The notes under the pieces were generated by a model. It did no database searches, was not told where the DNA came from, and was given only the letters and a program-made list of their open reading frames with translations. From an uncultured virus (IMG/VR IMGVR_UViG_3300007747_000151) (lineage: Duplodnaviria; Heunggongvirae; Uroviricota; Caudoviricetes), in IMG/VR virus record IMGVR_UViG_3300007747_000151: 20,000 nt of DNA. The stretch is one strand, 5' to 3'. A program made the position numbers and the translations under genes. This document shows positions 1 through 20,000 of the stretch, piece after piece (position 1 is the stretch's first letter; each line of letters opens with the position of its first letter).

Positions 1-2
1 TT

Positions 3-3000: not shown

Positions 3001-3125
3001 GGCAGGGTAATACTGATGCTGTTGGAAAGGCCTATCAGCAGGTTGTTAACCGCTCCGTGCAGGATGGGATTGCCAAAGCGCTGCGCCCCGGTGGGCTTAT
3101 CTGGAACGCTAATAACCGCAGGTGA
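3..3125 (+). CDS. Phage tail tape measure protein (lambda gpH-like), 5'-truncated by the window edge
   Basis: The frame is open from position 3 ([23 protein letters not shown]...), so the real start lies upstream of the window rather than at 69. Long Ala/Gln/Leu-rich helical protein with lambdoid TMP motifs '[15 protein letters not shown]', 'FKRLKEDPV' and C-terminal '[26 protein letters not shown]'. Directly upstream of M-L-K-I-J. Confidence 0.95.
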
Positions 3126-3128
3126 TTT

Positions 3129-3476
3129 ATGGCAATTGAAACATTCTCATGGCGCATTCAGGCTGCCAGCCAACCGACGCTAAAAAGCAAAGATAATATT
3201 CGTAAGGTTCAGTTTGGTGACGGTTATGCCCAGGTATCCGGGAATGGCATAAATGATGAAGCATTAAGTTATGAATTTTCATTTTCCGGCGACCCTGATA
3301 CTGCGCTGGATATTTATAAATTTTTGCGTCGCCATAAAACTAAATCGTTTTCCTTTAAACCACCATCAGGTGAATTAGCACTTTGGCGGGTTGAAGCGGA
3401 CAGTCTGCAAAAAGTTATTCAGGGAAAGAAAATCATCACCATCACCGCAACATTTGAACAGGCATTTGCACCATGA
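3129..3476 (+). CDS. Minor tail protein M (distal tail protein, lambda gpM-like)
   Basis: 115 aa with 'METFSW', 'VQFGDGYAQ..GNGIN' and 'ITATFEQAF' motifs. Synteny after H; ATGA overlap with L. Confidence 0.92.
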   Translation: MAIETFSWRIQAASQPTLKSKDNIRKVQFGDGYAQVSGNGINDEALSYEFSFSGDPDTALDIYKFLRRHKTKSFSFKPPSGELALWRVEADSLQKVIQGKKIITITATFEQAFAP

Positions 3477-4225
3477 TTAATTCTGATTATCAAAAGCTGG
3501 AGCCTGGTAATGAAATCAGGCTATTTGAAATTGATGGCAGTAGTTTTGGACTAGATAATGTTCTGTATTTCCACTCGCATAATATTGCCCATACAGAAGA
3601 TGAAATAATTGCTGCAGGAGGGGATGAGGATAAGTTACCTGCAAAAAGTATCTGGTGGCAGGGTACTGAATATAAAGCCTGGCCGTGTGAGATAGAGGGG
3701 ATTGAGGCTTCCACTAGTGGGACGGATGCCCAGCCTACGTTTCGGGTTGCTAACCTTGATGCGTCTGTAACTGCTCTGTGCCTGCATTATGATGATCTGA
3801 TGCAGGCAAAAGTCACTATCCACGATACGCTGGCAAAGTACCTCGATCCCCGTAATTTTCCCTCCGGCAATGCTACCGCCGATCCCACCCAGGAAAAATT
3901 GCAAACCTGGTATATCGATGCGAAAACCGATGAAACGGATGAGGTGGTGGAGTTCACCCTTGCCAGCCCGATGGACCTACAGGGCATGATGATCCCCACC
4001 CGCCAGTTGCATTCGTTGTGTACCTGGTGCATACGGAATAAGTATCGTTCTGGTGATGGCTGTGATTACGCAGGCTCGCGGTATTTTGACCAAAACAATA
4101 AGCCGGTCGATGATCCCTCGAAGGACGTCTGCAACGGTACCCTCACAGCATGTAAGTTGAGGCACGGTGACACCAGTGAATTGCCGTTCGGTGGGTTCCC
4201 GGGGACTTCATTAATCAGGAGCTGA
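3473..4225 (+). CDS. Minor tail protein L (lambda gpL-like, C-terminal Fe-S-binding cysteines)
   Basis: 250 aa with 'WQGTEYKAWP', 'IPTRQLHSLCTWC...YRSGDGCDY', 'DVCNGTLTACKLR' and 'LPFGGFPG' motifs. Synteny. Confidence 0.95.
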   Translation: MINSDYQKLEPGNEIRLFEIDGSSFGLDNVLYFHSHNIAHTEDEIIAAGGDEDKLPAKSIWWQGTEYKAWPCEIEGIEASTSGTDAQPTFRVANLDASVTALCLHYDDLMQAKVTIHDTLAKYLDPRNFPSGNATADPTQEKLQTWYIDAKTDETDEVVEFTLASPMDLQGMMIPTRQLHSLCTWCIRNKYRSGDGCDYAGSRYFDQNNKPVDDPSKDVCNGTLTACKLRHGDTSELPFGGFPGTSLIRS

Positions 4226-4226
4226 T

Positions 4227-4937
4227 ATGCGTCAAAAAGTCATTCAGGCGATACAGGCACATGCGGCGGCGGAATACCCGAGAGAGGCCTGTGGGCTAGT
4301 CGCCCAGAAAGGCCGGGTAGTGCGCTATTTCCCGTGCCGTAACATTGCCGGTGAACCAACTGAGCATTTTATTCTGGCGCCTGAGGATTATGCTGCCGCT
4401 GAGGACTGGGGAGTAGTGACTGGGATCGTACACAGTCACCCGGACGGCACGACCCAGCCGAGCGAACTGGACAAGGCACAATGTGATGCGACCCTGATGC
4501 CCTGGCATATCATCAGTTGGCCGGAAGGGGATTTTCGTACTATCCATCCTCGAGGGGAACTACCGTTACTTGAGCGACCGTTTGTGCTTGGCCATTATGA
4601 TTGCTGGGGGTTGGTAATGAGCTACTTCCGGCAGACTCATGGTATAGAATTGCATGACTACCGCGTCGATTATCCCTGGTGGGAAAAACAGTATCTCGAT
4701 AATTTTTACCACGATTGTTGGTATGAATGTGGGTTCCGTGAATTTGATGGGCCCCCACAGCCGGGGGATATGGTCATCATGCAGGTTCAGTCGGATAAGT
4801 GGAATCATGCCGGGATCCTGCTGGAGGGAAATATGCTGCTGCACCATCTTTATGGTCACCTCAGTAAACGGGTGCCATATGGCGGTTACTGGTTAGAGAG
4901 GACTATGAAGGTTCTGCGTTATCATTCATTGTGCTAA
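4227..4937 (+). CDS. Tail assembly protein K (JAB/MPN plus NlpC/P60 domains)
   Basis: JAMM motif 'EACG...HSHPDGTTQPSELD' and NlpC/P60 'DCWGLV...NHAGI...LLHH'. Synteny between L and I. Confidence 0.95.
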   Translation: MRQKVIQAIQAHAAAEYPREACGLVAQKGRVVRYFPCRNIAGEPTEHFILAPEDYAAAEDWGVVTGIVHSHPDGTTQPSELDKAQCDATLMPWHIISWPEGDFRTIHPRGELPLLERPFVLGHYDCWGLVMSYFRQTHGIELHDYRVDYPWWEKQYLDNFYHDCWYECGFREFDGPPQPGDMVIMQVQSDKWNHAGILLEGNMLLHHLYGHLSKRVPYGGYWLERTMKVLRYHSLC

Positions 4938-4940
4938 CCT
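4932..4940 (+). promoter_or_regulatory. Possible extended -10 promoter (TGcTAACCT) for the lipoprotein moron
   Basis: TGn followed by TAACCT, about 30 nt upstream of the TTG start and upstream of an SD-like 'AAGGGAG'. No clear -35 identified. Confidence 0.3.
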
Positions 4941-4970
4941 TTCTCCAAAATCAAAGGGAGTGGTACTAAA

Positions 4971-5369
4971 TTGAAAAAGATAATTTTATTATTATGCGTA
5001 ACTAGTTTATTTGCCTGTTCAAGTAATCCTTTTGAGGAGACGAAAACACTATATTCTACTGAATATAAAAAACCTTCCTCAAACTCTACGCAAATTCGTG
5101 TTCATCGTGTTTCTCAGCTATCCGGTGCCGCATTAGGTGAAGATTGCCCCTTAGTGCTTAAGGTCGATGATAAAGAGATTGCAGGATTACAAAAAAATCA
5201 ATATGTTGATTTATACGTTCCTAATGGTCATCATAACTTATCTGTTAAATTTAAATGTGCATTGACTTCATGGAGAAAATCTTTAGAGCTTAATGCAGTT
5301 GGTGACTATCAGGAGTATAAAACTGAAATTGGAGCAGTCGGTCAATATCGAATGTGGCGAGTTAAATAA
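4971..5369 (+). CDS. Putative outer-membrane lipoprotein (moron inserted between K and I)
   Basis: TTG start after 'AAGGGAG'. Signal peptide MKKIILLLCVTSLFA-C with lipobox LFAC, and Ser at +2 suggests outer-membrane sorting. Visibly AT-rich compared with K. The 'IRVHR...LKVDDKEIAGL...YVDLYVPNGHHNLSV' pattern resembles DUF2846-type beta-sandwich lipoproteins (unverified). Confidence 0.8.
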   Translation: MKKIILLLCVTSLFACSSNPFEETKTLYSTEYKKPSSNSTQIRVHRVSQLSGAALGEDCPLVLKVDDKEIAGLQKNQYVDLYVPNGHHNLSVKFKCALTSWRKSLELNAVGDYQEYKTEIGAVGQYRMWRVK

Positions 5370-5389
5370 TATCCTGATATTTAACCTAT

Positions 5390-5412
5390 AAGGTCGTTAA
5401 CTCGGCCTTTTT
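5390..5412 (+). terminator. Rho-independent terminator after the lipoprotein gene
   Basis: Hairpin AAGGTCG-ttaact-CGGCCTT (one G-U pair) followed by TTTGTT. Confidence 0.55.
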
Positions 5413-5425
5413 GTTGGGGTTTTTT

Positions 5426-6031
5426 ATGCCAGAAGTAATGACAAAAATTGTGATTAGTGGAGTGCTGGGGAAGCACTTTGGGAAAGTCCACTATCGACTT
5501 GTAAGAAATACAAAAGAGGCCATTAGAGCACTTTGCTGTACAATAGATGGTTTCGAAAGATATTTAAATGAAAGTGAGCAAAAAGGTCTCACATATGCTG
5601 TATTTAAAAATGATAAAAATATCGGAGAGGATGATTTAGCATTTCCAATATCCGGAGAAGAAATTCGTATTATCCCTGTATTAATCGGTAGTAAAAAAGC
5701 AGGAATGCTTCAAACAATATTTGGAGCTGTGTTAGCTGCTGTTGGGGTTGTAGTAGGGGTGATGACTTCCTGGACAGGTGTGGGCGGGGCAATAGGTACT
5801 GCTATGGTAAGCGCGGGTGTGGGAATGATGGCTGGTGGTGTTATTCAGATGCTTTCTCCACAACCTGCAGGATTAGCCAGTAAACAATCCGACGATAACA
5901 AAGCCTCTTACGCATTCGGCAGCGTGACCAATACAGCCTCACAGGGTTATCCAGTTCCCCTTCTCTACGGAAAACGACGAATTGGCGGAGCCATTATCTC
6001 TGCTGGGATCTACGTGGAAGATCAGCAGTAA
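5426..6031 (+). CDS. Tail assembly protein I (lambda gpI-like)
   Basis: 'GVLGKHFGK', 'EAIRALC', 'IRIIPVLIGSK', a Gly/Ala hydrophobic stretch, and 'SYAFGSVTNTASQGYPVPLLYG.RRIGGAIISAGI'. ATG at 5426 is preferred to the TTG at 5411 (5438 also possible). Confidence 0.93.
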   Translation: MPEVMTKIVISGVLGKHFGKVHYRLVRNTKEAIRALCCTIDGFERYLNESEQKGLTYAVFKNDKNIGEDDLAFPISGEEIRIIPVLIGSKKAGMLQTIFGAVLAAVGVVVGVMTSWTGVGGAIGTAMVSAGVGMMAGGVIQMLSPQPAGLASKQSDDNKASYAFGSVTNTASQGYPVPLLYGKRRIGGAIISAGIYVEDQQ

Positions 6032-6057
6032 TTCAACGCATTGTAGTTAACCTTTCA

Positions 6058-6081
6058 GGCTGCCAACAGGCGGCTTTTTTT
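6058..6081 (+). terminator. Rho-independent terminator-like hairpin between I and J
   Basis: GGCTGCC-aaca-GGCGGCT followed by a T run. Confidence 0.65.
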
Positions 6082-6092
6082 ATGGGTAAAAT

Positions 6093-9000
6093 ATGGCGAA
6101 CATCATTAAAGGGCGCAAAGGCGGCAGCTCTAAACAGCGCACACCCACAGAACAGCCGGATGATTTACAGTCCATTGCGAAAGCGAAAATTCTTGTTGCT
6201 TTAGGTGAGGGAGAGTTTGCCGGTAGCCTGACGGGTAAAGATATTTATCTCGATGGTACCCCGATCGAGAATGCCGACGGCTCACAAAACTTTAGCGGCG
6301 TGGCCTGGGAGTTTCGTCCAGGCACTCAGGCGCAAAACTATATTCAGGGTATTCCAGGTACCGAGAATGAAATTAGCGTGGGCACGGACATTTCAAGCCA
6401 GACGGCCTGGACCCACACGTTTACGAATACCCAGCTGTCCGCTATCCGGCTGCGTTTGAAATGGTCGGCTCTTTTTACTCAGGAAGATGATGGCGATCTG
6501 GTCGGCAACACCGTGAAATACGCCATCGATTTACAGACCGATGGCGGTAGCTGGCAGACAGTGGTTGATACGGCGGTGACCGGGAAAACTACTTCAGGGT
6601 ATGAGCGAAGCCACCGTATCGATTTGCCGCGGGCCGGCGCAACATGGACCGTTCGTCTGCGCAAATTAACTCCTGATGCTAACAGCGCAAAGATTGGCGA
6701 CAATATGGCGCTGCTGAGTTATACGGAAGTTATCGACGCGAAGCTGCGTTATCCAAACACGGCTTTGCTATATATCGAGTTTGATTCGAGTCAGTTTAAC
6801 GGCTCCATTCCACAGATTTCATGTGAGCCCCGCGGTCGGGTTATTCGTGTCCCTGATACCTATGATCCTGAAACCCGCTCTTATACCGGAACCTGGACGG
6901 GCTCGTTTAAATGGGCATGGACTGACAACCCCGCATGGATTTTTTACGATCTGGTGGTTAGCGACCGCTTCGGTCTTGGCAATCGGCTGACTGCTGCCAA
7001 TATCGATAAATGGATGCTGTACCAGGTTGCGCAATACTGCGACCAGCTTGTTCCTGATGGTAAGGGCGGTGATGGCCTGGAGCCGCGTTATATCTGTAAC
7101 GTATACATTCAGGATCGCAATGCTGCCTATACGGTGCTGCGCGACTTTGCCGCCATATTCCGTGGAATGACATGCTGGAACGGTCAACAGATTATCGCGC
7201 TGGCGGATATGCCGCGCGATATCGATTTCACCTATACCCGCGCCAACGTCATTGATGGCAAATTCCGTTATTCCAGCAGTACCAGTAAAACCCGCTATAC
7301 CAATGCTCTTGTATCGTGGTCAGATCCGGCCAACGCCTATTCTGATGCAATGGAGCCGTCATTTGTAAAAGAGCTTGTCGCGCGCTACGGATTTAATCAG
7401 CTCGAGCTAACGGCGATCGGTTGCACTCGACAATCAGAGGCTCACAGGAAAGGGTTGTGGGGGATCCTAACCAATAACAAAGATCGCATGGTGACGTTTG
7501 ATGTCGGCCTGGATGGTAAAATTCCTCAGCCTGGTTACGTTATCGGCGTAGCCGATGAAATGCTGGCCGGGAAAGTCAACGGCGGCCGCATCAGTAAAGT
7601 AGACGGGCGGGTTATCATCCTGGACAGGGATATTGATGCTAATGCCGGAGATCGCCTGCAGGTTAACCTGCCTTCCGGTACTTCCCAGAGCCGGACTATT
7701 CAGTCAATAAATGGCCGCCGGCAGGTGACTGTTACCACGGCATTCAGCGAGACTCCCGAGGCCGAATCAGTATGGGCTATTGAGTCTGATGATCTTTTCC
7801 TGCAGCAGTATCGTGTAGTTGGCGTTAAGGATAACAACAACGGGACTTACACGATTACAGGTACGTCGCATGATCCGGACAAATACGCGCGCATCGATAC
7901 GGGCGCCATAATTGATCAGCGTCCGGTCAGTGTTGTTCCTCCGGGTAATCAGGCTCCGCCAGATGGCATCCTCCTTACGTCCTTCTCCGTGGTGAATCAG
8001 GGGATCATCGTCGAAACCCTGCAGGCCAATTGGGACGCGGTACAAAACGCTATCGCCTATGAGGCGCAGTGGCGCCGCAATGACGGCAACTGGATTAACG
8101 TGCCGCGCAGCTCGACCACGTCATTTGAGGTCAGCGGCATTTATGCCGGTCGCTATCTGGTGCGAGTCCGTGCGATCAACGCGGCGGAAATTTCCAGTGG
8201 CTGGGCGTACTCGGAAGAGAAGACCCTGACCGGGAAAGTTGGCGAACCGCTGCCGCCGCTGGCGCTGACGACCGTTTCACTGACCGCAGGTATCGAAATT
8301 CGCTGGGAATTCCCTGCAGGCGCAGACGATACCCAGCGAACCGAACTGCAGTACAGCCCGGACCAGAGCGGGAACGGTGCGATGCCGCTGACCGATTTAG
8401 CGTATCCGGGCAAACAGTATCAGCAGATGGGCCTGCAGATTGCCACGCAGTTCTGGTACCGCGCGCGCCTGGTTGACCGCCTGGGCAATGCCTCGCCGTG
8501 GACTGACTGGGTGCATGGAATGGCCAGCGATAACGTTTCTGATTATTACCAGCAGCTCGACGACGCGCTTAAAGGCTCGGATACATACGAGGAACTGAAC
8601 AAAGGCATCCAGGACAACAGCGCTGCTGCCGACGCCGCGCAACAGGCTGCGGACGCCGCCCAGGGAACCGCTGACCAGGCGGCGAAGGATGTCGCCGCGC
8701 AGGGGGCCATTGTCACGCAGCAGGGCAAGGACCTGGCTGCCAACATCGCCAAAACCAACGACACGACCAACAAGCTGGCGCAGGAAGTGAAAGACCGCGC
8801 TGCAGGTGATACCGCCACAGCGCAGAAAGCGGCCAGCGATACCGCTGCAGCGGTGGCGAAAGCCGAAACGGACGATGCCGCCGTGGCGAAGCAGGCCGCC
8901 GATAACCTGCTGAGTGCTAAACGTGAAGTTGAAGCGGCGATTGAGACGACGAACGTCACCATGCAGAACGGCTTTGACAGCCTGGCGCAGCAGATGGCGT

Positions 9001-12000
9001 CGATTTCAGCCGGTACCGGCGAGCAGTTCGACAGTCTCAAAATCTGGTATTTCGACAAGGACAACGAGGGGTGGAGTTCTGACGACGGCGGCACGAAACC
9101 GCTCCCGACAACCGACGACGGGTGGATCCTTCCTGCGGATGCCATTTCGACCATGCGCAGCCCGTCGGGCGCTGGCACGCTGATTGACGGCAGCGCCTAT
9201 AAGTACCTCCGCCTGCGCATCAAGAAAGTCGGCAACCCGGCCTGGGGCGGTCGGCTGTACTGGATTGGCGCTGATGAAACCGGCTGGACCGAAGGACGCC
9301 GCCTGGTGCTGCCAGCACCGGATTTTGACCCGGCCACCGGCATCAGCACTATCGCGATCCCGGATATCCCATGGCAGGCCTCTGGCACCATTCGCCGCCT
9401 GCGTCTCGACTTCTCACAGGGGGGAGCGGCCGACGCAGATAACTATTATGCCGTTGACTGGCTGGCCGTTGGGCGCCCGACTCCTGGTGCATCGCAGGCG
9501 CAGATTCAGGACCTGAAAACGGCGATGACTGCTGCCGATTCAGCTGAGGCGCTGGCGCGTAACCAACTGGCGGTGCAGCTGCGCGGCAACGAGGAAGGTA
9601 CAGACCCGAATAAACTGGTTTCTGGTCTTATTTTCGAAGAGCGGAAAATCCGCGTGACGGCTGAGAAGGCCATCGGCTCCCGCGTGGATACGTTGCGCGT
9701 CGATTATGATAAATCCACTGCAGCGGCGACCCAGCGCATGGATACGCTGGCGAGCGACCTGCAGTCGACAGCCTCGAAAACGGATCAGGTCGCCGCGGAC
9801 CTTGTTTCAGCGAACGGCGTCATTGCTGGCCATACGCTGGCCATCCAGAAAATCGAGGGTGACGTCCAGACCATCGACGGCAAAGTTCAGGCCAACGCCA
9901 GCCAGATTGCCGGGGTGGAATCGAAGGTTGATAACATCCGAATCGGCGGCGTAAACCTGATACCCAACTCCGGGGAACTGACCGGCAAATCGCCATCTGC
10001 AACCGAACGTTACCGGGGTAACGCGGTTCGCATCCTGACGCGTGCCGCCGGAGCGACTGATTTCGCCGTCCTCGACTACACGCTGGCCGCGCCGGTTGAC
10101 GGTACCGAGTATGTTCTGTCGTTCTATGCGAAAGCGAAGACGGACAAGACGCCGGTTCGTTGTTTCCTGAATACGCCGGATGCCACTATCCGCGCTGAAA
10201 CCAGCCAGGGCGTTATTGTGGAGCGTCCAGCCGGGTATAACGGCGATGTGACCGTGACGCTCTCCACGTCCTGGAGTCGCTATTGGGTTAAATACAAACG
10301 CAAACCTGGCTTGTCCGGGACGGCGTATCTCGTTGTGGCCAGACTCGACGGCGCAGCTGCAGCGCGCGAAGCGTGGATCAGCTCTCCGATGTTTGAATCC
10401 GGAAATATTGTGAGCGACTGGAGCCAGGCACCGGCAGACAGCGCCAGCTCGGATGCCGTCCAGCAACTGACGACCCGCGTCACGACTGCCGAGAATACGC
10501 TGGCCACCACGGCGCAGCAGACGACGGCGCTCAAGTCACAGATTACGACCGGCAACCTCCTGCTGAATGGCGACCTGATTAATAAAGCGGATAACTGGCA
10601 GCTGTCCGGCACCGGCGCGGGTGCTCCGGTCTATGACGCGGTGATGAAAGGTCTCACCACGACCGAGCCGGCGATGCGGATCGCCAACGGAACAAAAATC
10701 CCGGTTGAAGCCGGTCAGGTACTGACGCTCACCTTCGGATTCAAGACGGACGACGCGACGATCAGCATCGGGACCCAGAATTTTACGATGGGCCTGATTG
10801 AGAATTGGGGGGATCCGACTAACTGGCTTGTCCAGGACAACACCTGGTTTGCGGGTATCACCACCGGCTACCAGACCCGCACGCTGACGTTCACGATCCC
10901 GAATGACTTCAAAGGGAGATGGTGTTACCTGCGCATGGCCTGCGGAGGATGGACGCCGTCAACCGCTCGCGTTTACCTGCAGGGCTTCATGCTGACCGCC
11001 TCAAACGGTATCGCTGGTAAAGCCGATGCATCAGCAGTGCAGGACCTGCAGTCGCAGGTCACGAAGAACGGTGACGACATTGCCACCAACGCCAGCGCGA
11101 TCACTAGCCTGGGTGGGCGTATTGATGCCACCAATGCCGAGGTGGCGAAGAAAGCCACCACCGCCGCGCTGGATAGCCTGAAGGCCACCGTCACGCAGCA
11201 GGGTAAGGATATTACCGCACAGGCGGAGCGGACGACGGCGTTAACCAATACCGTTAACCAGAATAAGCAGAATGCTGATTCTGCGATTGCCGCGAACGGC
11301 CAGGCGATCTCTGGTTTATCGCAAACTGTTTCACAGCAGGGCGACCGCATCACCAGCCAGGGCCAGCAGATTACGCAGGTCAGCAATAAAGTCGATACGG
11401 TGAATACTGACCTCGGCAAGCGGATTGACCAGAAGGCCGATAACAAGACAGTACAGGACCTCAGCGCCACCGTGACCCAGCAGGGCAAGGATATTACGGC
11501 GGCGAACCAGGCCATCACCAGCCTGAAAGGGCGTGTTTCGACGGTTGAGGAAGGGCTGGCCAAAGCGGCCACCGCCGATGCCGTGAGTAAACTGGATACA
11601 CGCGTTACAAACGCTGAGGGGAAAATTGAATCGCAGGGAACGGCGATCACCGGGATTAATGTTGCGCTGAACTCGCAGACGGCAGCGGGTGGCGACTACA
11701 TCCTGAACCCAACATTTGACCCCGCATATCCGTCTATGGGCTTTACCCGCCGGGATACGGTAGACAGCAACGACGATGATGGTATTCCGTATGATGCTGA
11801 CATCCCGGCAGGCGCTCCGCGTCGCTATGTAGCACGACTGGCCTCACGCGATCACCAGCTCAATACGCCACCGTGGCCGGTAAAAGCGGGGCAGGTATTC
11901 GAGATTTCGGTCTGGGTAGCGGCAAAGGCAGGTTCCAACGCCGCATTTAACATGTACATCGGCTCGGCTACGGGACCGAATACGGGTGCCGTGGCGTACG

Positions 12001-15000
12001 CTGCGTTACCGGGTAGCGTTGCGCCCACTCAGACCTGGACGGAGAAAAAATACCGCTGGACGGTCCCGGCTAACTTCCCGCGCGGATATATGCGCCCGTT
12101 CCTGCAGGTGAACCAGAACGCGCCGTATGGCTCCGTATGGTATGCAACTGATTTCCACTGCCGGGAGATCACCGCCGCGCAGGGTGCGCAGACTGCTGCC
12201 GACGCTGCCGCCGGTGCTGTGACCCAACTGGATGCGAAAGTGACGCAGCAGGGCAACACCATTACCAGCCTGGGCCAGGCGATTACGGCCATCACTGGTC
12301 GGGTGTCGAACCTTGAATCCGGGCAGAGCGCGAACAGCAGCGCAATTCAGTCCCTGACGCAACGAACCACGGCAGCGGAAGGGAAAATTGAAACGAACAG
12401 CCAGGCGATCACCTCCGTCACCGGCGCGGTGAATGCGATGCTCAATCGCGGCGAGAACCTGGCAAACGATTTTAATTTTATGAGCGGATCGGCGCTGTGG
12501 GGTGTCCAGGGGAATACGCGTAACAAGGTGGAGTTTGGCGACTTTGGCGACGGTAAACCCGGCGTCCAGATGACGCAGCTCGACAGCACGTTGTATACCG
12601 GCCTCTTTGCTAACCAGAAAGCGCCGCTGCCACACAATACCCCACGCCGCTACCAGGTCATCGTTAAGGCGAAGGGCGTATCCGGCGCGAGGAATTTCAT
12701 GGTTCGCCGGTTTAACTACCTGGGGAATGTGGCCGGGACTTATGAAAACTGCCAGTTCTCCGCCACGGATACCTGGGCGACGTACGCCGCTGAGTTTAGC
12801 GCGCCATCGTCGGCGACAGTGGATGGTTCTGTTTTTGCGCTCTACTGCTACCCGAACGCGTCGGTCATTCAGATTGATTACATCGCCATCTATGACATCA
12901 CCGATGCGGTGGCCATCGATGCGAATACGTCTGCGGTCACGCAGCTGCAGCAGACGGTCACGCAGCAGGGCCAGGATATTGCTGCGAATGCCAGCGCCAC
13001 GACCGCCGTTTCTGCAAGCCTGAATGCAGCAATGGCTGACGTGGATAACAAAATCACGGGCAACCTGATTTTAAACGGGGGATTCGAGCGCGACTTCACC
13101 AACTGGACCGCGCCAGCACAGGCGACAGTGATGTCGGCGCAGAATCCACACAGCGGCAAAAAAATCGTGAAATATGTGGCCGCTACCACCACGACTCTTT
13201 TGTCGAATGACACAGTTATTACTGCCGTTAAGGGCAGAACGTACAAGTTTGGTGCGTGGCTACGGGCTAAGGCCGGTTCGACTATGCAGCCTAACACGCA
13301 GCAGAATAACAAGGTTCGATTTGCATACCTCGATAACTCTGTAATCCTCGAGGCGCGCTTCGACCCGGCCACAATGCCTACTGGCAGCGTATGGCAGGAG
13401 TACAGCAACACGTACACCGCCACTAAGGACGGCACCATGTCGGTCAGCATCAACGCGTTTTTGAATGCAGGCGAAATTTATATCGACGATGTGTACGTTA
13501 TCGATATTACTGACCGGGTCGAACTCGATGCCACGGCTGGCGCTGTATCTAACCTGCAGTCGACCGTGACACAGCAGGGAAAAGATATTGCCTCTAATGC
13601 CAGCGCGATCACGTCGGTCAACGCTTCAATCGGTGCGCTGCAGAGCCAGGGATTAAACCCCTGGTGTGATGGTTCCTTTGAGTCATACACCGCAAACCAG
13701 CAACTGGGCAGCAGCTCGCTGGCGCGCGTCTCGACAGATGTTTACCGCAATGGCCAGAAGTCGCTCAAAATCACGCGTAACAACGGCGAGAACGGCAACA
13801 GCGACAAGATGATCGGAAACTGGCTTGCTGTTCGCGGTGGCGGTAAGTATCGGTTTTCTCTCTGGGCTTACATGGCCAGTGATATGTCGACACCGAACGG
13901 CTGGAATGTGTCTGTCGGCCTCTTTGCTCGCGGAGAGAATGGCGGCGCAAACCAGTGGCCGGAAGCCGTCCGTATCTCCGAGACAAACATCTCGCGCGGC
14001 AAATGGGTTCTCCTGACGGGAGTAGCGACCGTTGGTGCCGACCGGAGCATTGCGCAGATGTGGATCTCCACCAGGGGGCCGAACGGTGGAGCCGGTTATT
14101 CGCTGTATCTGGACGATATCAGCATTGTCGATGTGACCGACGCACAGGAGGCGCAGGATACCGCCACTGGCGCCGCGAACGCCGTTACCCAGCTGACTGC
14201 TACCGTGACCCAGCAAGGGAAGGATATCACCGCGCAGGCAGGGCAAATCACCAGCCTCGGCTCGCGTGTGGGTGATGCAGAGTCGCGTATCACGAAGCAG
14301 GACGAAACCATTGCATCTAACGGCCTGGCGATGGCGAACGGCTTTAACCAGATTCGCAGCATGATTGGCGACAATAGCGCGGCAATCACCACGACGAACA
14401 AAACCGTTGCCGACCTGGAAAAATCAACCACGGAGCAAATCACCACGCTGACCTCGCAGGTCGGGGATATGTCTGCAACCGTTCAGCAGACGGCATCCAC
14501 CGTGGCGGATTTAAACGGCCAGTTGGGAGCGCAGTGGGGCGTGAAGGTCAGCACGTCTTCAGGTGGAAATAACTACGTGGCTGGTCTTCAGCTGGGGATT
14601 AATGGCAGCGGCCAGTCACAGTTCCTGGTCCAGGCTGATACGTTTGGCGTTTATGTGCCTAACGGCGATCAAAAAAATATGGTCTTCGGTATCGACGGGA
14701 ACGGCGCTTATTTTCAGCAGGCGATGGCTCGTAACCTGGTTATCGATTTCGCGCAAATCTCCGACAACATCCGCTCGACGAACTACCAGCCAGGCCAGGC
14801 GGGTAAAGGGTGGAGCATCTCGAAAGGCGGCGGCGCGGAGTTCAACGACGTAACGGTCCGCGGTAGGGTATTCGCGACGGACGGCGTATTTACCGGCACC
14901 GTACGTGCCAATGATGGTTACTTTAACGGCACCGTGTACGCGTCGCGGATCGAGGGTGACGTTGGCTCGTTCGCAATCAACTGTTACAAGGCCACGTACA

Positions 15001-15446
15001 ACCGTGTGCCAAAAGCAACATGGCAGTGGTGGGATCTTCTGCGTATTCGTAAGCAGGGATTTGATCAAGTAGTCGATATCAAAGGCGCATTACGTCAGGC
15101 GGATAAGTACGGCGACCTTCGTGCTGGTATGTCTTATCAGTCCGGCGCGGATGGCGGACTCAATCCGGGCTACGTAGGGTACGCAATACTTATGCGCCCA
15201 GGTGGCGATACTTCCGGCGGTGGGCCGATGACAACGGCGATATCTATTGACGGACAAATATTTTGGTCGTCAAAGGAAGGGTACGCGACGATAGAAAGTC
15301 TCCGCTTTATTGTACCGGCTGGAACTGGTGATGCGATTGTCCGCTTCGGATGTTATCTCGACCGTAACGGTTCAATGGAACTTCGTACTTTGATGCGCTT
15401 CGACGCTTTTGTCGCGCGCAACAGTAACGCGATAAGCCTACTTTAA
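6093..15446 (+). CDS. Tail tip / host-specificity protein J (central tail fibre), giant multi-module variant
   Basis: Lambda J-like N-terminus ('KGRKGGSS', 'LGEGE', 'LRYPNTAL', 'WTDNPAWIFYD', 'GCTRQSEAHRKGLW'). FN3-like region at about 7950-8520. Coiled-coil linkers alternate with about 150-aa beta-rich modules from about 9010 to 14140. DUF1983-like 'QFLVQADTFGV...IRSTNY...GWSISKGGGAEFNDVTVRG' at about 14480-14880, then a distinct C-terminal domain. 3117 aa, uninterrupted. Confidence 0.95.
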   Translation: MANIIKGRKGGSSKQRTPTEQPDDLQSIAKAKILVALGEGEFAGSLTGKDIYLDGTPIENADGSQNFSGVAWEFRPGTQAQNYIQGIPGTENEISVGTDISSQTAWTHTFTNTQLSAIRLRLKWSALFTQEDDGDLVGNTVKYAIDLQTDGGSWQTVVDTAVTGKTTSGYERSHRIDLPRAGATWTVRLRKLTPDANSAKIGDNMALLSYTEVIDAKLRYPNTALLYIEFDSSQFNGSIPQISCEPRGRVIRVPDTYDPETRSYTGTWTGSFKWAWTDNPAWIFYDLVVSDRFGLGNRLTAANIDKWMLYQVAQYCDQLVPDGKGGDGLEPRYICNVYIQDRNAAYTVLRDFAAIFRGMTCWNGQQIIALADMPRDIDFTYTRANVIDGKFRYSSSTSKTRYTNALVSWSDPANAYSDAMEPSFVKELVARYGFNQLELTAIGCTRQSEAHRKGLWGILTNNKDRMVTFDVGLDGKIPQPGYVIGVADEMLAGKVNGGRISKVDGRVIILDRDIDANAGDRLQVNLPSGTSQSRTIQSINGRRQVTVTTAFSETPEAESVWAIESDDLFLQQYRVVGVKDNNNGTYTITGTSHDPDKYARIDTGAIIDQRPVSVVPPGNQAPPDGILLTSFSVVNQGIIVETLQANWDAVQNAIAYEAQWRRNDGNWINVPRSSTTSFEVSGIYAGRYLVRVRAINAAEISSGWAYSEEKTLTGKVGEPLPPLALTTVSLTAGIEIRWEFPAGADDTQRTELQYSPDQSGNGAMPLTDLAYPGKQYQQMGLQIATQFWYRARLVDRLGNASPWTDWVHGMASDNVSDYYQQLDDALKGSDTYEELNKGIQDNSAAADAAQQAADAAQGTADQAAKDVAAQGAIVTQQGKDLAANIAKTNDTTNKLAQEVKDRAAGDTATAQKAASDTAAAVAKAETDDAAVAKQAADNLLSAKREVEAAIETTNVTMQNGFDSLAQQMASISAGTGEQFDSLKIWYFDKDNEGWSSDDGGTKPLPTTDDGWILPADAISTMRSPSGAGTLIDGSAYKYLRLRIKKVGNPAWGGRLYWIGADETGWTEGRRLVLPAPDFDPATGISTIAIPDIPWQASGTIRRLRLDFSQGGAADADNYYAVDWLAVGRPTPGASQAQIQDLKTAMTAADSAEALARNQLAVQLRGNEEGTDPNKLVSGLIFEERKIRVTAEKAIGSRVDTLRVDYDKSTAAATQRMDTLASDLQSTASKTDQVAADLVSANGVIAGHTLAIQKIEGDVQTIDGKVQANASQIAGVESKVDNIRIGGVNLIPNSGELTGKSPSATERYRGNAVRILTRAAGATDFAVLDYTLAAPVDGTEYVLSFYAKAKTDKTPVRCFLNTPDATIRAETSQGVIVERPAGYNGDVTVTLSTSWSRYWVKYKRKPGLSGTAYLVVARLDGAAAAREAWISSPMFESGNIVSDWSQAPADSASSDAVQQLTTRVTTAENTLATTAQQTTALKSQITTGNLLLNGDLINKADNWQLSGTGAGAPVYDAVMKGLTTTEPAMRIANGTKIPVEAGQVLTLTFGFKTDDATISIGTQNFTMGLIENWGDPTNWLVQDNTWFAGITTGYQTRTLTFTIPNDFKGRWCYLRMACGGWTPSTARVYLQGFMLTASNGIAGKADASAVQDLQSQVTKNGDDIATNASAITSLGGRIDATNAEVAKKATTAALDSLKATVTQQGKDITAQAERTTALTNTVNQNKQNADSAIAANGQAISGLSQTVSQQGDRITSQGQQITQVSNKVDTVNTDLGKRIDQKADNKTVQDLSATVTQQGKDITAANQAITSLKGRVSTVEEGLAKAATADAVSKLDTRVTNAEGKIESQGTAITGINVALNSQTAAGGDYILNPTFDPAYPSMGFTRRDTVDSNDDDGIPYDADIPAGAPRRYVARLASRDHQLNTPPWPVKAGQVFEISVWVAAKAGSNAAFNMYIGSATGPNTGAVAYAALPGSVAPTQTWTEKKYRWTVPANFPRGYMRPFLQVNQNAPYGSVWYATDFHCREITAAQGAQTAADAAAGAVTQLDAKVTQQGNTITSLGQAITAITGRVSNLESGQSANSSAIQSLTQRTTAAEGKIETNSQAITSVTGAVNAMLNRGENLANDFNFMSGSALWGVQGNTRNKVEFGDFGDGKPGVQMTQLDSTLYTGLFANQKAPLPHNTPRRYQVIVKAKGVSGARNFMVRRFNYLGNVAGTYENCQFSATDTWATYAAEFSAPSSATVDGSVFALYCYPNASVIQIDYIAIYDITDAVAIDANTSAVTQLQQTVTQQGQDIAANASATTAVSASLNAAMADVDNKITGNLILNGGFERDFTNWTAPAQATVMSAQNPHSGKKIVKYVAATTTTLLSNDTVITAVKGRTYKFGAWLRAKAGSTMQPNTQQNNKVRFAYLDNSVILEARFDPATMPTGSVWQEYSNTYTATKDGTMSVSINAFLNAGEIYIDDVYVIDITDRVELDATAGAVSNLQSTVTQQGKDIASNASAITSVNASIGALQSQGLNPWCDGSFESYTANQQLGSSSLARVSTDVYRNGQKSLKITRNNGENGNSDKMIGNWLAVRGGGKYRFSLWAYMASDMSTPNGWNVSVGLFARGENGGANQWPEAVRISETNISRGKWVLLTGVATVGADRSIAQMWISTRGPNGGAGYSLYLDDISIVDVTDAQEAQDTATGAANAVTQLTATVTQQGKDITAQAGQITSLGSRVGDAESRITKQDETIASNGLAMANGFNQIRSMIGDNSAAITTTNKTVADLEKSTTEQITTLTSQVGDMSATVQQTASTVADLNGQLGAQWGVKVSTSSGGNNYVAGLQLGINGSGQSQFLVQADTFGVYVPNGDQKNMVFGIDGNGAYFQQAMARNLVIDFAQISDNIRSTNYQPGQAGKGWSISKGGGAEFNDVTVRGRVFATDGVFTGTVRANDGYFNGTVYASRIEGDVGSFAINCYKATYNRVPKATWQWWDLLRIRKQGFDQVVDIKGALRQADKYGDLRAGMSYQSGADGGLNPGYVGYAILMRPGGDTSGGGPMTTAISIDGQIFWSSKEGYATIESLRFIVPAGTGDAIVRFGCYLDRNGSMELRTLMRFDAFVARNSNAISLL
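8713..14232 (+). repeat. Dispersed intragenic repeat encoding (T/V)V(T/S)QQG(K/D/N/Q)(D/R/T)(I/L), consensus about GTSACSCAGCAGGGYAAGGAYATT
   Basis: Copies seen near 8713, 11190, 11328, 11472, 12240, 12957, 13566 and 14205, plus a variant 'QVTKNGDDI' near 11055. All lie in the coiled-coil linkers of J. Confidence 0.85.
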
Positions 15447-15447
15447 C

Positions 15448-15479
15448 AGGAGGGGTCCTTCGGGACCCTTAACAATATG
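15448..15479 (+). promoter_or_regulatory. Structured ribosome-binding site: SD (AGGAG), cUUCGg hairpin, then ATG
   Basis: AGGAG at 15448-15452; GGGTCC-TTCG-GGACCC at 15453-15468; 8 nt (TTAACAAT); ATG at 15477. No U-tract after the hairpin and no other SD near the ATG. Confidence 0.65.
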
Positions 15480-16610
15480 GCGATAATTAGTGACGAATTA
15501 GCGGCCAGCATCCAGAAATGTTTCGACCGCACTTATGTGGATTTAGCAAATCAACAGCAGTTTTTATTTGGAGCCGGGAACGTGACGGTCACGAAGCCGG
15601 ACGGTACAACGGGGACGGTAAAATCGTGGGCGCAGTTCCTGAGCGAATACGCCACGCGACAGCAGAACATCGACACAGCGCTGAAGGACGTAGCGAAGAC
15701 GACGGCGACCAACACGTGGACGCAGGCGCAGACGTGGAATGTAAGCAGCACCTTTAAAAACAACCTCACGGTCGACAAGAACCTAACGGTTAACGGAAAT
15801 TTAAACGGCGTACAGATTGCCGGGTCTCATATCGAGCTAACCGCACCAACGCCTTACATTGATTTTCACTATGGCAATAGTACGGCTGACTACACGCATC
15901 GCATCATCGCCGAAGACGGCGCGCTTGCCGTATCACCTGGCTGGCGTGTATACGGTAATCAGCGGACGTTTGGGGCTAACACTGTCGACGGCAATATTTG
16001 GTGGGGGTTCGTAGCTACGCGATTTGACGAACCTGGCGCACCGGCTATCGGTACTCTTATCAACTCCCCTAACATGACATGGCGGTTCAAACAGCGAGGC
16101 GCAGACAGTAAAGGCGCAGAGGCCGGAATGGCGGCGGCGTATTTTGAGGAACAGGTGGGAACAAACCACCGATTAGCGATCACCGTTCAGGGGTTCAACG
16201 CTAACCAGCAGTGGTGGCAGTTCCTGAGCGACGGCAGGATCTACAGCAGCCAGAACGGTAACGTCCAGTTCCAGGGAACGTCCGACGCGCGCATGAAGCA
16301 TGACATTAAACCGACGGACGGACAGCTATCTGTCGACCGCATCCGGGCGCTTGAGCTGGTGACGTTCGTCTATAACGACGACGAGCAGGGAAGGACGCGC
16401 CGGGGAATTATCGCGCAGCAGGCGCGGGACGTTGATCCACAGTATGTGAAGCAGGTTAACACGGCATACATGCGCAACGGTGAACGGGTGGATGACGACC
16501 GCCTTCAGTTAGATAATAACGTGATAATGATGGACACACTGGCTGTGGTACAAGTATTGATTAAGCGAGTAGACGAACTGGAGGATAGATTGAATAAAAT
16601 TTCAGATTAA
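15477..16610 (+). CDS. Tail fibre protein with C-terminal intramolecular chaperone (peptidase S74)
   Basis: N-terminal 'GAGNVTVTKPDGTTGTVKSW' attachment-type motif, fibre motif 'TPYIDFHYGNSTADYTHRII', autocleavage motif 'SDARMKHDI' (Ser codon 16281-16283), 'RRGIIAQQ' and a terminal coiled coil. Confidence 0.9.
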   Translation: MAIISDELAASIQKCFDRTYVDLANQQQFLFGAGNVTVTKPDGTTGTVKSWAQFLSEYATRQQNIDTALKDVAKTTATNTWTQAQTWNVSSTFKNNLTVDKNLTVNGNLNGVQIAGSHIELTAPTPYIDFHYGNSTADYTHRIIAEDGALAVSPGWRVYGNQRTFGANTVDGNIWWGFVATRFDEPGAPAIGTLINSPNMTWRFKQRGADSKGAEAGMAAAYFEEQVGTNHRLAITVQGFNANQQWWQFLSDGRIYSSQNGNVQFQGTSDARMKHDIKPTDGQLSVDRIRALELVTFVYNDDEQGRTRRGIIAQQARDVDPQYVKQVNTAYMRNGERVDDDRLQLDNNVIMMDTLAVVQVLIKRVDELEDRLNKISD

Positions 16611-16684
16611 CCTGAATATACTCCAGCTGTTCTTTGGCGTTTGGGCTGCTGTGTACTGGAGTATTTGAGTTAAGCATAGGAGTT

Positions 16685-16861
16685 TTAGTGCAGAGTATGT
16701 GGCGCTCCTTGCTGAAATGCGACCCAAGTAATTTCACCTTTTTCAAGTTTCACTATCAGCTCGCATTCAGTAGTAGGTAGAACCAGACCTTTTTTCCTAA
16801 GATATTCAGTTAATTTTTTTGTCATTTCTTCAAGTTGCTTAGGGTCGTTTTCGTCTTTCAT
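16685..16861 (-). CDS. Small hypothetical protein (58 aa), translationally coupled to the dinI-like gene
   Basis: ATG at 16861-16859 overlaps the dinI TGA (ATGA). Sequence MKDENDPKQLEEMTKKLTEYLRKKGLVLPTTECELIVKLEKGEITWVAFQQGAPHTLH looks like a helix plus beta-hairpin. Confidence 0.6.
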   Translation of the reverse strand: MKDENDPKQLEEMTKKLTEYLRKKGLVLPTTECELIVKLEKGEITWVAFQQGAPHTLH

Positions 16862-17100
16862 TCTTCCCCCAGCCACATATCTGCTTCTTCAAACATTTCT
16901 TGAATAGCTGCACTAATCCTTTCTTTTTCGTGTTTGCTTGCATCAGTGTTGATAGCGGGTAATGACATCATTGGCTTTACCCTAATATCAGCATCAGGAA
17001 AGATGCGATGTATGCGCTTGGTTAGTTCGCCATGGATTAGCGCTTTCGCATCTGGCAGGCCTTCGAAGTTTCTTTTGTCGTAGATGAGTTCAACAAACAT
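16858..17100 (-). CDS. DinI-family protein (prophage-encoded, 80 aa)
   Basis: MFVELIYDKRNFEGL...ELTKRIHRIFPDADIRVKPM...IQEMFEEADMW matches the DinI/MsgA-family pattern. GAGGAG SD at 17112-17107; LexA boxes immediately upstream. The ORF track's longer start runs through the SOS boxes. Confidence 0.9.
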   Translation of the reverse strand: MFVELIYDKRNFEGLPDAKALIHGELTKRIHRIFPDADIRVKPMMSLPAINTDASKHEKERISAAIQEMFEEADMWLGEE

Positions 17101-17114
17101 GGATATCTCCTCTT

Positions 17115-17134
17115 TACTGTGTATATATACAGTA
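17115..17134. promoter_or_regulatory. LexA (SOS) box 1
   Basis: TACTGTGTATATATACAGTA = CTG-N10-CAG, close to the consensus TACTG(TA)5CAGTA. Confidence 0.92.
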
Positions 17135-17138
17135 TATA

Positions 17139-17158
17139 TACTGTATTTATGTACAGTG
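17139..17158. promoter_or_regulatory. LexA (SOS) box 2
   Basis: TACTGTATTTATGTACAGTG = CTG-N10-CAG, offset 24 bp from box 1. Confidence 0.88.
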
Positions 17159-17179
17159 TCAAGTTCAGGAGTCAGTATC

Positions 17180-17572
17180 ATGGGATTTCCATCACCAGCG
17201 CAAGACTATGAAGATAAGGGAATATCTCTTGATGAGCGGTTTATAAGAGACCCGTCTGCAACGTACTTTATGCGAGCAGCAAGTACCTACTATCAAGCGG
17301 GGATCATTCAGGGGGCTTTACTTGTAATCGATTCTTCGCTGAGCCCATGTGATGGTTCGTTACTCATTTGCGCGGTCGACGGTGAGCTTAAGATAAAGAG
17401 ATACAGAGTGATGCCTCGACCTTATCTGGAAGATCTGCAGACAGGGAGAAGGGAAGAGATACCTAGAGACAATGACGATGGCTACAGTAACCAGCGCGCT
17501 GTATTTGGAGTCATTACTTATATTATCAATGATGCACGTTTGGGGGAGTTTGATGATTGCCCTGTTATGTGA
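17180..17572 (+). CDS. UmuD'-like protein (HumD-type, S24-family fold, 130 aa)
   Basis: Starts MGFPSPAQDY after a CAGGAG SD (17166-17171). Aligns by eye to UmuD from its cleavage site: GFPSPAADY, 'PSATYF', 'GALLVID', 'AVDGELKIKRY', 'VFGVITYII'. The catalytic GDSM motif is not recognisable. Confidence 0.88.
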   Translation: MGFPSPAQDYEDKGISLDERFIRDPSATYFMRAASTYYQAGIIQGALLVIDSSLSPCDGSLLICAVDGELKIKRYRVMPRPYLEDLQTGRREEIPRDNDDGYSNQRAVFGVITYIINDARLGEFDDCPVM

Positions 17573-17717: not shown

Positions 17718-17744
17718 ATCGGCGAGTAGTTAAGCCTTTGCCAA

Positions 17745-18935
17745 CTATTCAGATTCAGTAAGTGATGCTTGATAACATTTTACTGCCTCAGCAAAAGCTT
17801 GTGCGGCATCTGCATTCGATACCATATATTCTTCAGTTACCCCTGTATGAGAATGGAAGGTAAGATTCCCATAAACACAAATCGGGATTTGATAGTTGTC
17901 CTTAAATCGGCGATCTGGTGAGCCATTCTTATTCGTTTTTGCCCAAGTATGGCCATCTATACGTGTATCCTTGGGTACATCGTCTTCCTCTTGGAATCTC
18001 CGATGTTCTGCACTGATTTGTAATTCGCGTATATCAATCAGAGCGAATGCTCCATCAACACGTGGTATGACTGCAACTCCAGGATAAAGCAATATATCGT
18101 CGCCATTTACATTTTCAAAACGCATTGCACGACCTGTAAATTGAATGAGATCTGTTGAGCTGTAGTCAAAGGTAACAGGATGACGATCTACAGATCGAGT
18201 TGCTAACGTTCTTTCTGTAAACTGGTCTGTTGCTTTGTCAGCGGTGATATCCCATTTTTTTATGCTAGATTTTAACGTATCGAATGCGCGAACCATTGCT
18301 GCATATGCTCGCTGTGAGGCATCACTATTCTCGAATGCTATGACTATTTTTGTGTTGTCTTCCCATGACCTTAGGCGAGATATTTCTGCTTGGGTCAGGG
18401 GGAGTTCTGTCTCAAGTTCAGTAATGCGTCGTTTGTAAAACCAACGGAATAGACTTGACTTGCGTCGAACCAGTTCGCTCTTTTGTTTTGACTCCTCAGC
18501 AAGAGCCTCGTGTAAATCAGCTTTAACTTCTGCTCGTTGTTCTCGTGCTTTACCGATCAAATCTCGTAAAGGTAAAAGAGAGGAACTTGTCAGGACCTCT
18601 ACCGAAGCGCTTGAGATTTCATTCATGCCAGCCTTGGGCATATAAATTCTAGCGCTTGATGGGAGGGGGCTTGAGGAATCCTCAGGAATTACAAAATGAG
18701 GTTCTGTAGAAGAGGGATTTAATGGAATACTAACTGAGTTCCTGTCGTCATAGGACAAGGTAGGGGTTGTATACGACAAGCCACTACCTGGTAGTCCAAC
18801 TGTCGCTCTAATTCCATTTTGACCAACATTGACAGTTGCACCTGGTACACCGATGCTCGCACTTATCCCGCGCTTACCAATGTTGAGTCTAACGCCCGGA
18901 AACAGAGTAAAAGTTTGTCTGAAACGAAGAGACAT
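17745..18935 (-). CDS. DUF4236 domain-containing protein (396 aa), accessory/cargo gene
   Basis: N-terminal 'MSLRFRQTFTLFPGVRLNIGKRGISASIGVPGATVNVG...TVGLPGSGLSY' is the DUF4236 pattern. Then a Ser/Pro linker, a coiled coil and a C-terminal domain with 'TWAKTNKNGSPDRRFKDNYQIP..VYGNL'. ATG at 18935 follows AGGGATGA. Lower GC than smpB by eye. Confidence 0.85.
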   Translation of the reverse strand: MSLRFRQTFTLFPGVRLNIGKRGISASIGVPGATVNVGQNGIRATVGLPGSGLSYTTPTLSYDDRNSVSIPLNPSSTEPHFVIPEDSSSPLPSSARIYMPKAGMNEISSASVEVLTSSSLLPLRDLIGKAREQRAEVKADLHEALAEESKQKSELVRRKSSLFRWFYKRRITELETELPLTQAEISRLRSWEDNTKIVIAFENSDASQRAYAAMVRAFDTLKSSIKKWDITADKATDQFTERTLATRSVDRHPVTFDYSSTDLIQFTGRAMRFENVNGDDILLYPGVAVIPRVDGAFALIDIRELQISAEHRRFQEEDDVPKDTRIDGHTWAKTNKNGSPDRRFKDNYQIPICVYGNLTFHSHTGVTEEYMVSNADAAQAFAEAVKCYQASLTESE

Positions 18936-19067
18936 AAAGTCATCCCTGTTTAGCTTTGAACAACACATTTCGAAACATTGACATGATCATTGAGCTGATA
19001 CAAAAGGCTAATACTTAGCTCATTTTCATATCGTAATGATACAGCTGTTTGCTGCAGGTGGGTTAAT

Positions 19068-19099
19068 ACATGAAAGCCCGCATAAGCGGGCTTTCATGT
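19068..19099. terminator. Perfect 14-bp inverted repeat, likely terminator downstream of ssrA
   Basis: ACATGAAAGCCCGC-ataa-GCGGGCTTTCATGT. Confidence 0.75.
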
Positions 19100-19225
19100 C
19101 ACTAAAGAGCCGCGGCTCCTTTGCGTATCCTTTTTTGTCCCCTCACCGTCTGGTCGGTGTCCTGCTGAGACTGCTAACTTCCTGTTATTGCTAGTGATGT
19201 CCTATCACTGTCCAATCATGATTGG
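19100..19225. mobile_element. att-arm-like segment of an element integrated at the ssrA 3' end (P2/Fels-2-like by resemblance)
   Basis: TGTCC repeats at 19136, 19158, 19198 and 19209 (22- and 11-bp spacings within the two pairs). Palindromes GAGCCGCGGCTC (19107-19118) and CCAATCATGATTGG (19212-19225, overlapping the ssrA CCA). ssrA is an established integration hotspot. Confidence 0.6.
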
Positions 19226-19494
19226 TGGAGCTGGCGGGAGTTGAACCCGCGTCCGAAATTCCTACATCCTCGGTACTACATGCTTAGTTTGTCTTTACAT
19301 TCGCACGCCAGCTGCGGACAGACACGCCACTAACGAACTAGCCTGATTAGTTTTAGCACTTCAACCCCAGGCAGGGCATCCGCGCGATCTCTTTTGGGTT
19401 TGACCTCTCTTGATCCCCGTCCTAAGAGCGGAGGCTAGGGAGAGAGGGCTCTAAGCAGGTTATTAAGCTGCTAGTCGAATCCAGAATCAGCCCC
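19223..19494 (-). ncRNA. ssrA: tmRNA gene with an internal deletion of about 90 nt (272 nt; probably non-functional for tagging)
   Basis: Reverse complement reads GGGGCTGATTCTGGATTCGAC|TAGCAGCTTAATAACCTGCTTAGAGCCC...GGAATTTCGGACGCGGGTTCAACTCCCGCCAGCTCCACCA. Both ends and the pk2-pk4 region match enterobacterial ssrA, but the segment equivalent to E. coli nt 22-111 is missing at the 19474/19473 junction. Downstream of smpB as expected. Confidence 0.95.
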
Positions 19495-19507
19495 AATGTG
19501 TACTTGA

Positions 19508-19516
19508 AGTATAACA
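19508..19516 (-). promoter_or_regulatory. ssrA promoter, extended -10 (TGtTATACT)
   Basis: Reverse complement 'aatcTGtTATACTtcaagtacacattGGGGCTG', with the same placement as the TATACT box upstream of E. coli ssrA. Confidence 0.75.
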
Positions 19517-19637
19517 GATTTGTGAAGGTGGTTACCAGCCCCTGAAGCGAGGATTCTGGCGGCATATCGAGTGAAAAAGCAGCGACAACAGCAATATAGC
19601 GTTGGGCCAGAGGGAGCTGGCCCGCAGAGAGGGGGGA

Positions 19638-20000
19638 TTACCGGCCGGCGTTCTTCATGATGCGCGCCTTATCGACCGCCCATTCACGATCTTTCACGTC
19701 GGTGCGCTTATCGTGCTGTTTCTTACCTTTCGCCACGCCGATTTTCACCTTGCACCAGGCGTTCTTCCAGTACAACGACAGGGCGACGACGGTATAACCT
19801 TCGCGGTTGATGCGGCCGTATAGCGCATCGAGCTCGCGCTGATTGAGCAGCAGCTTGCGGGTACGGGTCGGATCGCAAACGTAATGCGTGGAGGCGACCG
19901 CCATTGGCGTAAAGTTGGCGCCGAAGAGATAGGCTTCGCCATCTTTCAGAATGACATAGCTATCGCCGATGTTGGCTTTGCCGGCTCGCAGAGATTTCAC
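19638..20000 (-). CDS. smpB: SsrA-binding protein SmpB (5' end outside the window)
   Basis: '[15 protein letters not shown]', '[15 protein letters not shown]', '[12 protein letters not shown]' and 'DKARIMK' motifs; adjacent to ssrA. The visible part is intact. Confidence 0.98.

Follow-up and report, generated by a model that had tools for sequence, protein, structure and literature searches.

A private internal deletion in the tmRNA gene of an enterobacterium near Klebsiella, beside a lambda-like prophage: a probable loss-of-function allele

Introduction

The tmRNA-SmpB system is found almost universally and is under investigation as a target for antibiotics. Some organellar tmRNAs lack the mRNA-like domain, and these are conserved forms that are found lineage-wide. 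In bacterial genomes, ssrA (the tmRNA gene) is also an integration hotspot, where islands and prophages leave gene fragments limited to the 3' end. Six complete genomes without tmRNA and 16 with a defective smpB, and none without both, were listed by Hudson, Lau and Williams (2014); the tmRNA losses described there are old and lie mostly in highly reduced genomes, and the gene of Carsonella PC is degraded (PMC4131195). In the laboratory, E. coli survives deletion of ssrA only thanks to ArfA, with ArfB acting as a multicopy suppressor (PMC8012679). K. pneumoniae tolerates loss of the partner gene, a TraDIS screen having yielded smpB transposon mutants (PMC6247091).

The locus described here lies in a window of 20,000 nt, the whole stretch of DNA that was analysed (IMG/VR record IMGVR_UViG_3300007747_000151), which runs from the tail end of a lambda-like prophage into ssrA and smpB. 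The ssrA gene of the window is short of 91 internal nucleotides. As in the laboratory E. coli ssrA deletion mutants, trans-translation would be lost, smpB is intact and dependence on ArfA would be expected (PMC8012679); unlike theirs, however, the lesion is partial and leaves a tRNA-like RNA that can be transcribed, and the allele comes from a deposited genome record and was, as far as known, not made on purpose. With the genomes listed by Hudson et al. it would share the inactivation of one tmRNA-SmpB partner while the other remains intact (PMC4131195), but it differs from the tmRNA losses described there: the deletion is undiverged, and the conspecifics of its free-living enterobacterial host still have ssrA. 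The likeness to island- and prophage-made fragments lies in the hotspot itself, since the gene has a prophage end and a repeated att core of 35 nt beside it, whereas the lesion falls in the 5' third and both gene ends are kept. Like the organellar tmRNAs, the allele retains tRNA-like ends and has no usable tag frame, but it is private and it keeps pseudoknots 2-4 together with the unpaired 3' strand of helix 2. We place it with the strain-level tmRNA knockouts, which are already known in kind: the dispensability of ssrA in E. coli is established, and the present case would add one private deletion.

Results and Discussion

Reading along the minus strand, the 3' part of smpB is followed by a 143-nt spacer and then by ssrA, which is the normal host site after smpB (Table 1). 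Infernal matched the gene to Rfam family RF00023 at 19494-19223 on the minus strand with 141.1 bits (gathering score 47; E 9.8e-56); the match spans model positions 1-374 and includes both gene ends, and an internal block of 85 model positions is unmatched. Intact genes scored about twice as high (291.9 and 290.5 bits for the related records L004 and L005, 295.8 bits for E. coli HS, L007). Run over the whole window, ARAGORN found neither a tmRNA nor a tRNA nor a tag, while in all three positive controls (the same L004, L005 and E. coli HS genes) it returned a 363-nt tmRNA with the tag ANDENYALAA and two stops. The first-pass annotation of this DNA, made from the letters alone, had claimed a tmRNA gene with an internal loss; the gapped RF00023 match, the missing ARAGORN tmRNA and the alignments described below all bear the claim out.

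Table 1. Features of the window around the shortened ssrA gene and its prophage neighbour.
Feature	Position	Strand	Basis
Lambda-like prophage tail end	69..17572	+ (DinI -)	Pfam and PHROG matches
J-like tail-tip protein, 3117 aa	6093-15446	+	Pfam
DUF4236 protein gene, 407 aa, adjoining the ssrA 3' end	17745..18968	-	Pfam PF14020, E 4.5e-20
35-nt ssrA 3' end (T-arm, acceptor 3' strand), att core for integrating elements	19222..19256	-	Repeated in conspecific genomes
ssrA (tmRNA), 272 nt, without nt 22-112 of the 363-nt gene	19223..19494	-	Infernal RF00023; comparison with provirus record L003
Tag-frame remnant UA GCA GCU UAA UAA (last two alanine codons, both stops)	19460..19473	-	Direct reading
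Deletion junction GAC/TAG (minus-strand letters)	19473..19474	-	Single gap in both alignments; contigs of 4/4 runs
Retained 5' 21 nt: acceptor-stem 5' strand, D-loop-like segment, first three helix 2 positions	19474..19494	-	cmscan
smpB-ssrA intergenic region, conserved TG-n-TATACT element at 19516-19508	19495..19637	-	Alignment with E. coli HS
smpB 3' part, 120 codons, open to the window end	19638..20000	-	Pfam PF01668 SmpB, E 3.7e-39

The extent of the lesion depends slightly on the reference. Against the ssrA of E. coli HS (annotated RefSeq record) there is a single 90-nt gap between 19474 and 19473, in agreement with the loss of about 90 nt (nt 22-111) that had first been proposed by comparison with E. 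coli; against the nearest relatives the gap is 91 nt and removes gene nt 22-112, so that the earlier figure does not hold for the conspecific allele. These relatives, L002 and L003, are two IMG/VR provirus records that both share the 27-nt promoter/gene-start stretch of the window and have an ssrA of 363 nt. The remaining 272 nt of the window gene (21 + 251) are identical to L003 and differ from L002 at one position. The 21 nt kept at the 5' end align with high posterior probability in cmscan and are the same in E. coli HS, L002 and L003.

Several parts that a functional one-piece tmRNA requires fall within the gap. Pseudoknot 1 lies wholly inside the missing nt 22-112, the resume codon and the single-stranded stretch upstream that positions it are deleted, and the 5' strand of helix 2, the helix that joins the tRNA-like domain to the ring of pseudoknots, is gone from nt 22, its fourth position in the Rfam model, the pairs forced there by cmscan being non-standard. 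The tag frame occupies nt 91-126 in intact relatives (ARAGORN), so the last base of the deletion is the first base of the Leu codon; the window keeps nt 113-126 only, and the codons for A-N-D-E-N-Y-A plus that first Leu base, seven and a third of ten, are lost. What is left of the frame is the GCA GCT TAA TAA that had already been recognised in the sequence, at 19473-19460. The acceptor stem, T-arm and 3' CCA of the tRNA-like domain are present, aligned with high posterior probability and identical to those of intact relatives, and pseudoknots 2-4 are likewise unchanged, both in the Infernal alignment and by comparison with these relatives; the initial description of all these parts as undamaged was correct.

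At the junction, the base preceding the gap is not the one with which the deleted block ends, nor is the base following the gap the one with which that block begins. The gap therefore cannot be shifted, the breakpoints are unambiguous and microhomology is absent: zero letters are shared by the two sides of 19473/19474, in the contigs of four conspecific runs as well as in the alignment of the relatives. This alignment to conspecific ssrA, which the first-pass annotation had suggested for locating the breakpoints, places them at nt 22-112 and agrees with its remark that no repeat is visible that could explain the junction. A blunt junction without microhomology fits illegitimate recombination better than slippage between repeats, and the former would be our preferred origin for the 91-bp deletion. 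A hairpin-mediated deletion was considered and rejected, as single-strand DNA folds of the intact locus keep the two breakpoints apart. The idea that the breakpoints coincide with RNA domain boundaries was also dropped, the left one lying three positions inside helix 2 in the Rfam model. A 5-bp hairpin begins one base past the right breakpoint; we do not consider it as evidence for a hairpin-mediated event.

The conspecific comparison is based on the contigs (not the raw reads) of the best four of 21 public runs matching part of 17700-20000; the four come from four studies and represent one organism. In all four, 91 letters stand between 19473 and 19474, which amounts to an intact ssrA. No other insertion or deletion occurs across 2.3 kb, there is no difference in 19227-19473, and 2-3 differences are found in the 1.55 kb that hold the neighbouring DUF4236 gene. 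The same neighbourhood with 91 extra letters in four of four runs thus identifies close strains in which ssrA is intact. Towards smpB the agreement continues over 19474-19602 (129 nt running upstream of the gene, without a difference from the four sets of contigs), and the first upstream difference is at 19603. The TG-n-TATACT element in this region is conserved with E. coli HS; a simple promoter scan upstream of ssrA gave no site meeting the scan's own criteria. The smpB fragment is open and differs from L002 and L003 by one residue, K for R. That promoter and smpB persist, as stated at the outset, is thus supported by an unchanged promoter region and an intact smpB fragment.

The junction itself was sought more widely. 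Its 30-mer had no match in the genome, viral and metagenome contig collections, from which very near records were possibly left out, and none of the 21 public runs contains all the sampled words (best share 0.86). The 27-mer of the conspecific promoter gave no match in genome contigs, where near relatives were again possibly left out, and found L002 and L003 in viral contigs. A survey built on a 26-nt piece of the trailer downstream of ssrA, which occurs in 109 IMG/VR stretches, covered 80 of them: both gene ends are present in 24, with an ssrA of 363 or 364 nt in every case (24/24), 39 have only a 30-60-nt fragment of the ssrA 3' end (the att copy), 17 are without the ssrA 3' end, and the junction is in none of the 80. 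Among complete E. coli genomes, 5426 of 5426 contain a match that spans 80% or more of the 363-nt ssrA, of which the window allele would span 75%; with conservation this extreme, a real loss must be rare a priori. Across the collections searched, the deletion allele is private to this record.

We estimate at roughly 0.6 the probability that the host ssrA has suffered a recent and private 91-bp internal deletion (nt 22-112) by which its function is lost. Since the event the retained parts have not decayed, and it is the identity of all 272 nt with the intact gene of L003 that marks the deletion as recent; together with the one clean gap, this sustains the recent single event that had been proposed from the sequence. 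Undecayed parts are equally expected, however, from an error in the sequence record (assembly, polishing, consensus-making or later handling), in which case the ssrA of the organism would be a normal gene of 363 nt. The confinement of the junction to one record, the intact ssrA in four of four conspecific runs and the lack of any comparable shortening in the 5426 complete E. coli genomes would all be accounted for by such an error, and Hudson et al. warn that apparent losses of tmRNA or SmpB may be sequence errors (PMC4131195). Against this, the site lies in unique sequence and its junction shows neither repeat nor microhomology, while the unitigs of the conspecifics break at the att core in the 3' end of the gene and not at 19473. 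The record is also clean elsewhere: no other indel separates it from the four relatives over 2.3 kb, and the 9.35-kb frame at 6093-15446 and all other tail genes are open, long open frames that make a noisy assembly less likely. We therefore consider an artefact unlikely, though a serious enough prospect that the record should be flagged for verification of the ssrA locus before use, and it should not be counted as one with an intact ssrA.

The cleanness of the junction, with neither microhomology nor scar, would also suit a deliberate scarless deletion, built in a laboratory strain by recombineering or allelic exchange before its genome was deposited, the more so as the lesion removes function but leaves promoter, smpB and 3' att core in place. 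Taking out 91 nt while keeping 21 nt of the 5' end would nevertheless be an odd design, vector or marker sequence is absent near the junction, and a full-text search on Klebsiella ssrA deletion gave no such construct in the titles or abstract starts among the matches listed; an engineered origin is in our opinion very improbable. The first-pass annotation had left four options side by side (natural null allele, tag-less RNA, laboratory construct, assembly error); the intact conspecifics and the unique junction narrow this choice without settling it.

If the host gene does carry the deletion, a 272-nt RNA is probably still transcribed, and alanine might still be loaded onto its acceptor/T-arm part, as AlaRS requires little apart from the acceptor stem. 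The loss of the helix 2 5' strand leaves the tRNA-like domain without its stem, and no more than two bases stand between the tRNA-like 5' segment and what remains of the frame, GCA GCU UAA; a stalled ribosome would find no properly placed frame to switch to, and trans-translation, both tagging and release, should fail. An intact tmRNA has its resume codon set in the A site by the five bases just ahead of the tag frame, which interact with SmpB (PMC8012679). By minimum free energy, the 272-nt RNA folds no better than shuffled sequence (z = -0.23). Because the upstream SmpB-contact bases and the helix 2 5' strand are gone and the fold is of this quality, we read the allele as a null: judged from the anatomy of the RNA, it should be inactive in trans-translation.

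The shortened RNA could conceivably retain a function of its own, as a tag-less or mini-tag rescue RNA that is charged with alanine, enters stalled ribosomes and releases them at nearby stops. Candidate stops are available in the UAG at the junction or in GCA GCU UAA, two of the three frames stopping within three codons, the acceptor stem, T-arm, CCA and pseudoknots 2-4 are unchanged, and the organellar tmRNAs without an mRNA-like part offer a precedent. Such a role is hard to reconcile with the removal of the upstream bases through which SmpB positions the resume codon, only two bases being left before GCA (PMC8012679), with a tRNA-like domain that lacks the stem and the 5' strand of helix 2 and has non-standard pairs in cmscan, and with the shuffled-like fold (z = -0.23). 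The allele is moreover private and undiverged, so that no signal of selection is visible, and we hold a functional short RNA to be highly improbable.

With a null deletion, the strain would rely on the ArfA/RF2 or ArfB backups, by analogy with E. coli ssrA deletion mutants. It would then represent a free-living enterobacterial isolate that does without the near-universal tmRNA-SmpB system, and would provide a natural background, outside the laboratory, for compensation by ArfA/ArfB and for phenotypes such as stress tolerance, phage growth and capsule. A stronger version, in which a natural strain lives without trans-translation as the result of a knockout that was selected rather than accidental, strikes us as quite improbable. 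One possible selective reason would be that losing tmRNA-SmpB changes the outcome of phage infection or of prophage induction; a full-text search of the literature for spontaneous ssrA or smpB mutants resistant to phage gave no match. Another possible reason would be raised capsule production following tmRNA-SmpB loss: smpB transposon mutants are among the putative increased-capsule hits reported for K. pneumoniae NTUH-K2044 (PMC6247091), which suggests increased capsule as a candidate phenotype by analogy.

Integration does not account for the ssrA deletion, which is 217 nt away from the att core. This core is repeated in the conspecifics: in each of the four runs, several contigs have short pieces covering 19222-19256, whose ends at 19222 and 19256 are loose. 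The trailer just past the tmRNA CCA (19150-19222, minus strand) is conserved with E. coli HS. Many of the 80 trailer-bearing stretches examined have this sequence beside nothing more than the bare ssrA fragment, which indicates that ssrA-targeting phages carry the trailer with their att site.

The DUF4236 gene occupies the spot next to ssrA where an integrase would usually be expected. Its 407-aa product belongs to phrog_17982 (E 8.6e-180), for which the PHROG annotation gives the function as unknown, and an integrase reading of the frame at 17745-18968 was ruled out by the Pfam DUF4236 and phrog_17982 matches. Its adjacency to ssrA/smpB is confirmed in four other strains by the contigs of the four runs.

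The prophage genes of the window encode the tape measure protein, M, L, K (NlpC/P60 and JAB), I, a J-like protein, a tail fibre with an S74 chaperone domain, DinI and a UmuD-like protein (Pfam/PHROG). The J-like protein is roughly threefold larger than usual. An FNIII-A GpJ domain lies near its N-terminus, residues 2323-2452 form a carbohydrate-binding domain (CBM_4_9), and a tail-tip fibre domain spans 2796-2931. The divergent pair of DinI (minus strand) and UmuD-like (plus strand) genes at 16858-17572, with an AT-rich palindromic spacer at 17110-17160, resembles the LexA-regulated pair annotated in Klebsiella phage phiKO2. At the DNA level the prophage comes nearest to Klebsiella phages (83% identity to Kp4865-4 across 1-4892), and K. 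pneumoniae prophage records that include the adjoining ssrA and smpB agree with the window at only 88-89%; by these DNA likenesses the host is an enterobacterium near Klebsiella. The nearest record (G001) has no ssrA or smpB part, and its similarity to the window stops at about 16592, where G001 itself ends, so that it does not define the prophage boundary.

Between the UmuD-like gene and the DUF4236 gene, about 49 nt on the minus strand (17677-17725) look like the 3' part of a tRNA, with T-arm, acceptor 3' strand and CCA, followed by a terminator-like hairpin. Neither ARAGORN nor an Rfam scan (E up to 1) reported anything there. We take the stretch to resemble the 3' half of a tRNA-Pro, in the manner of an att-site remnant. 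The contigs of all four runs end at about 17688, inside it, which fits a repeat elsewhere in those genomes.
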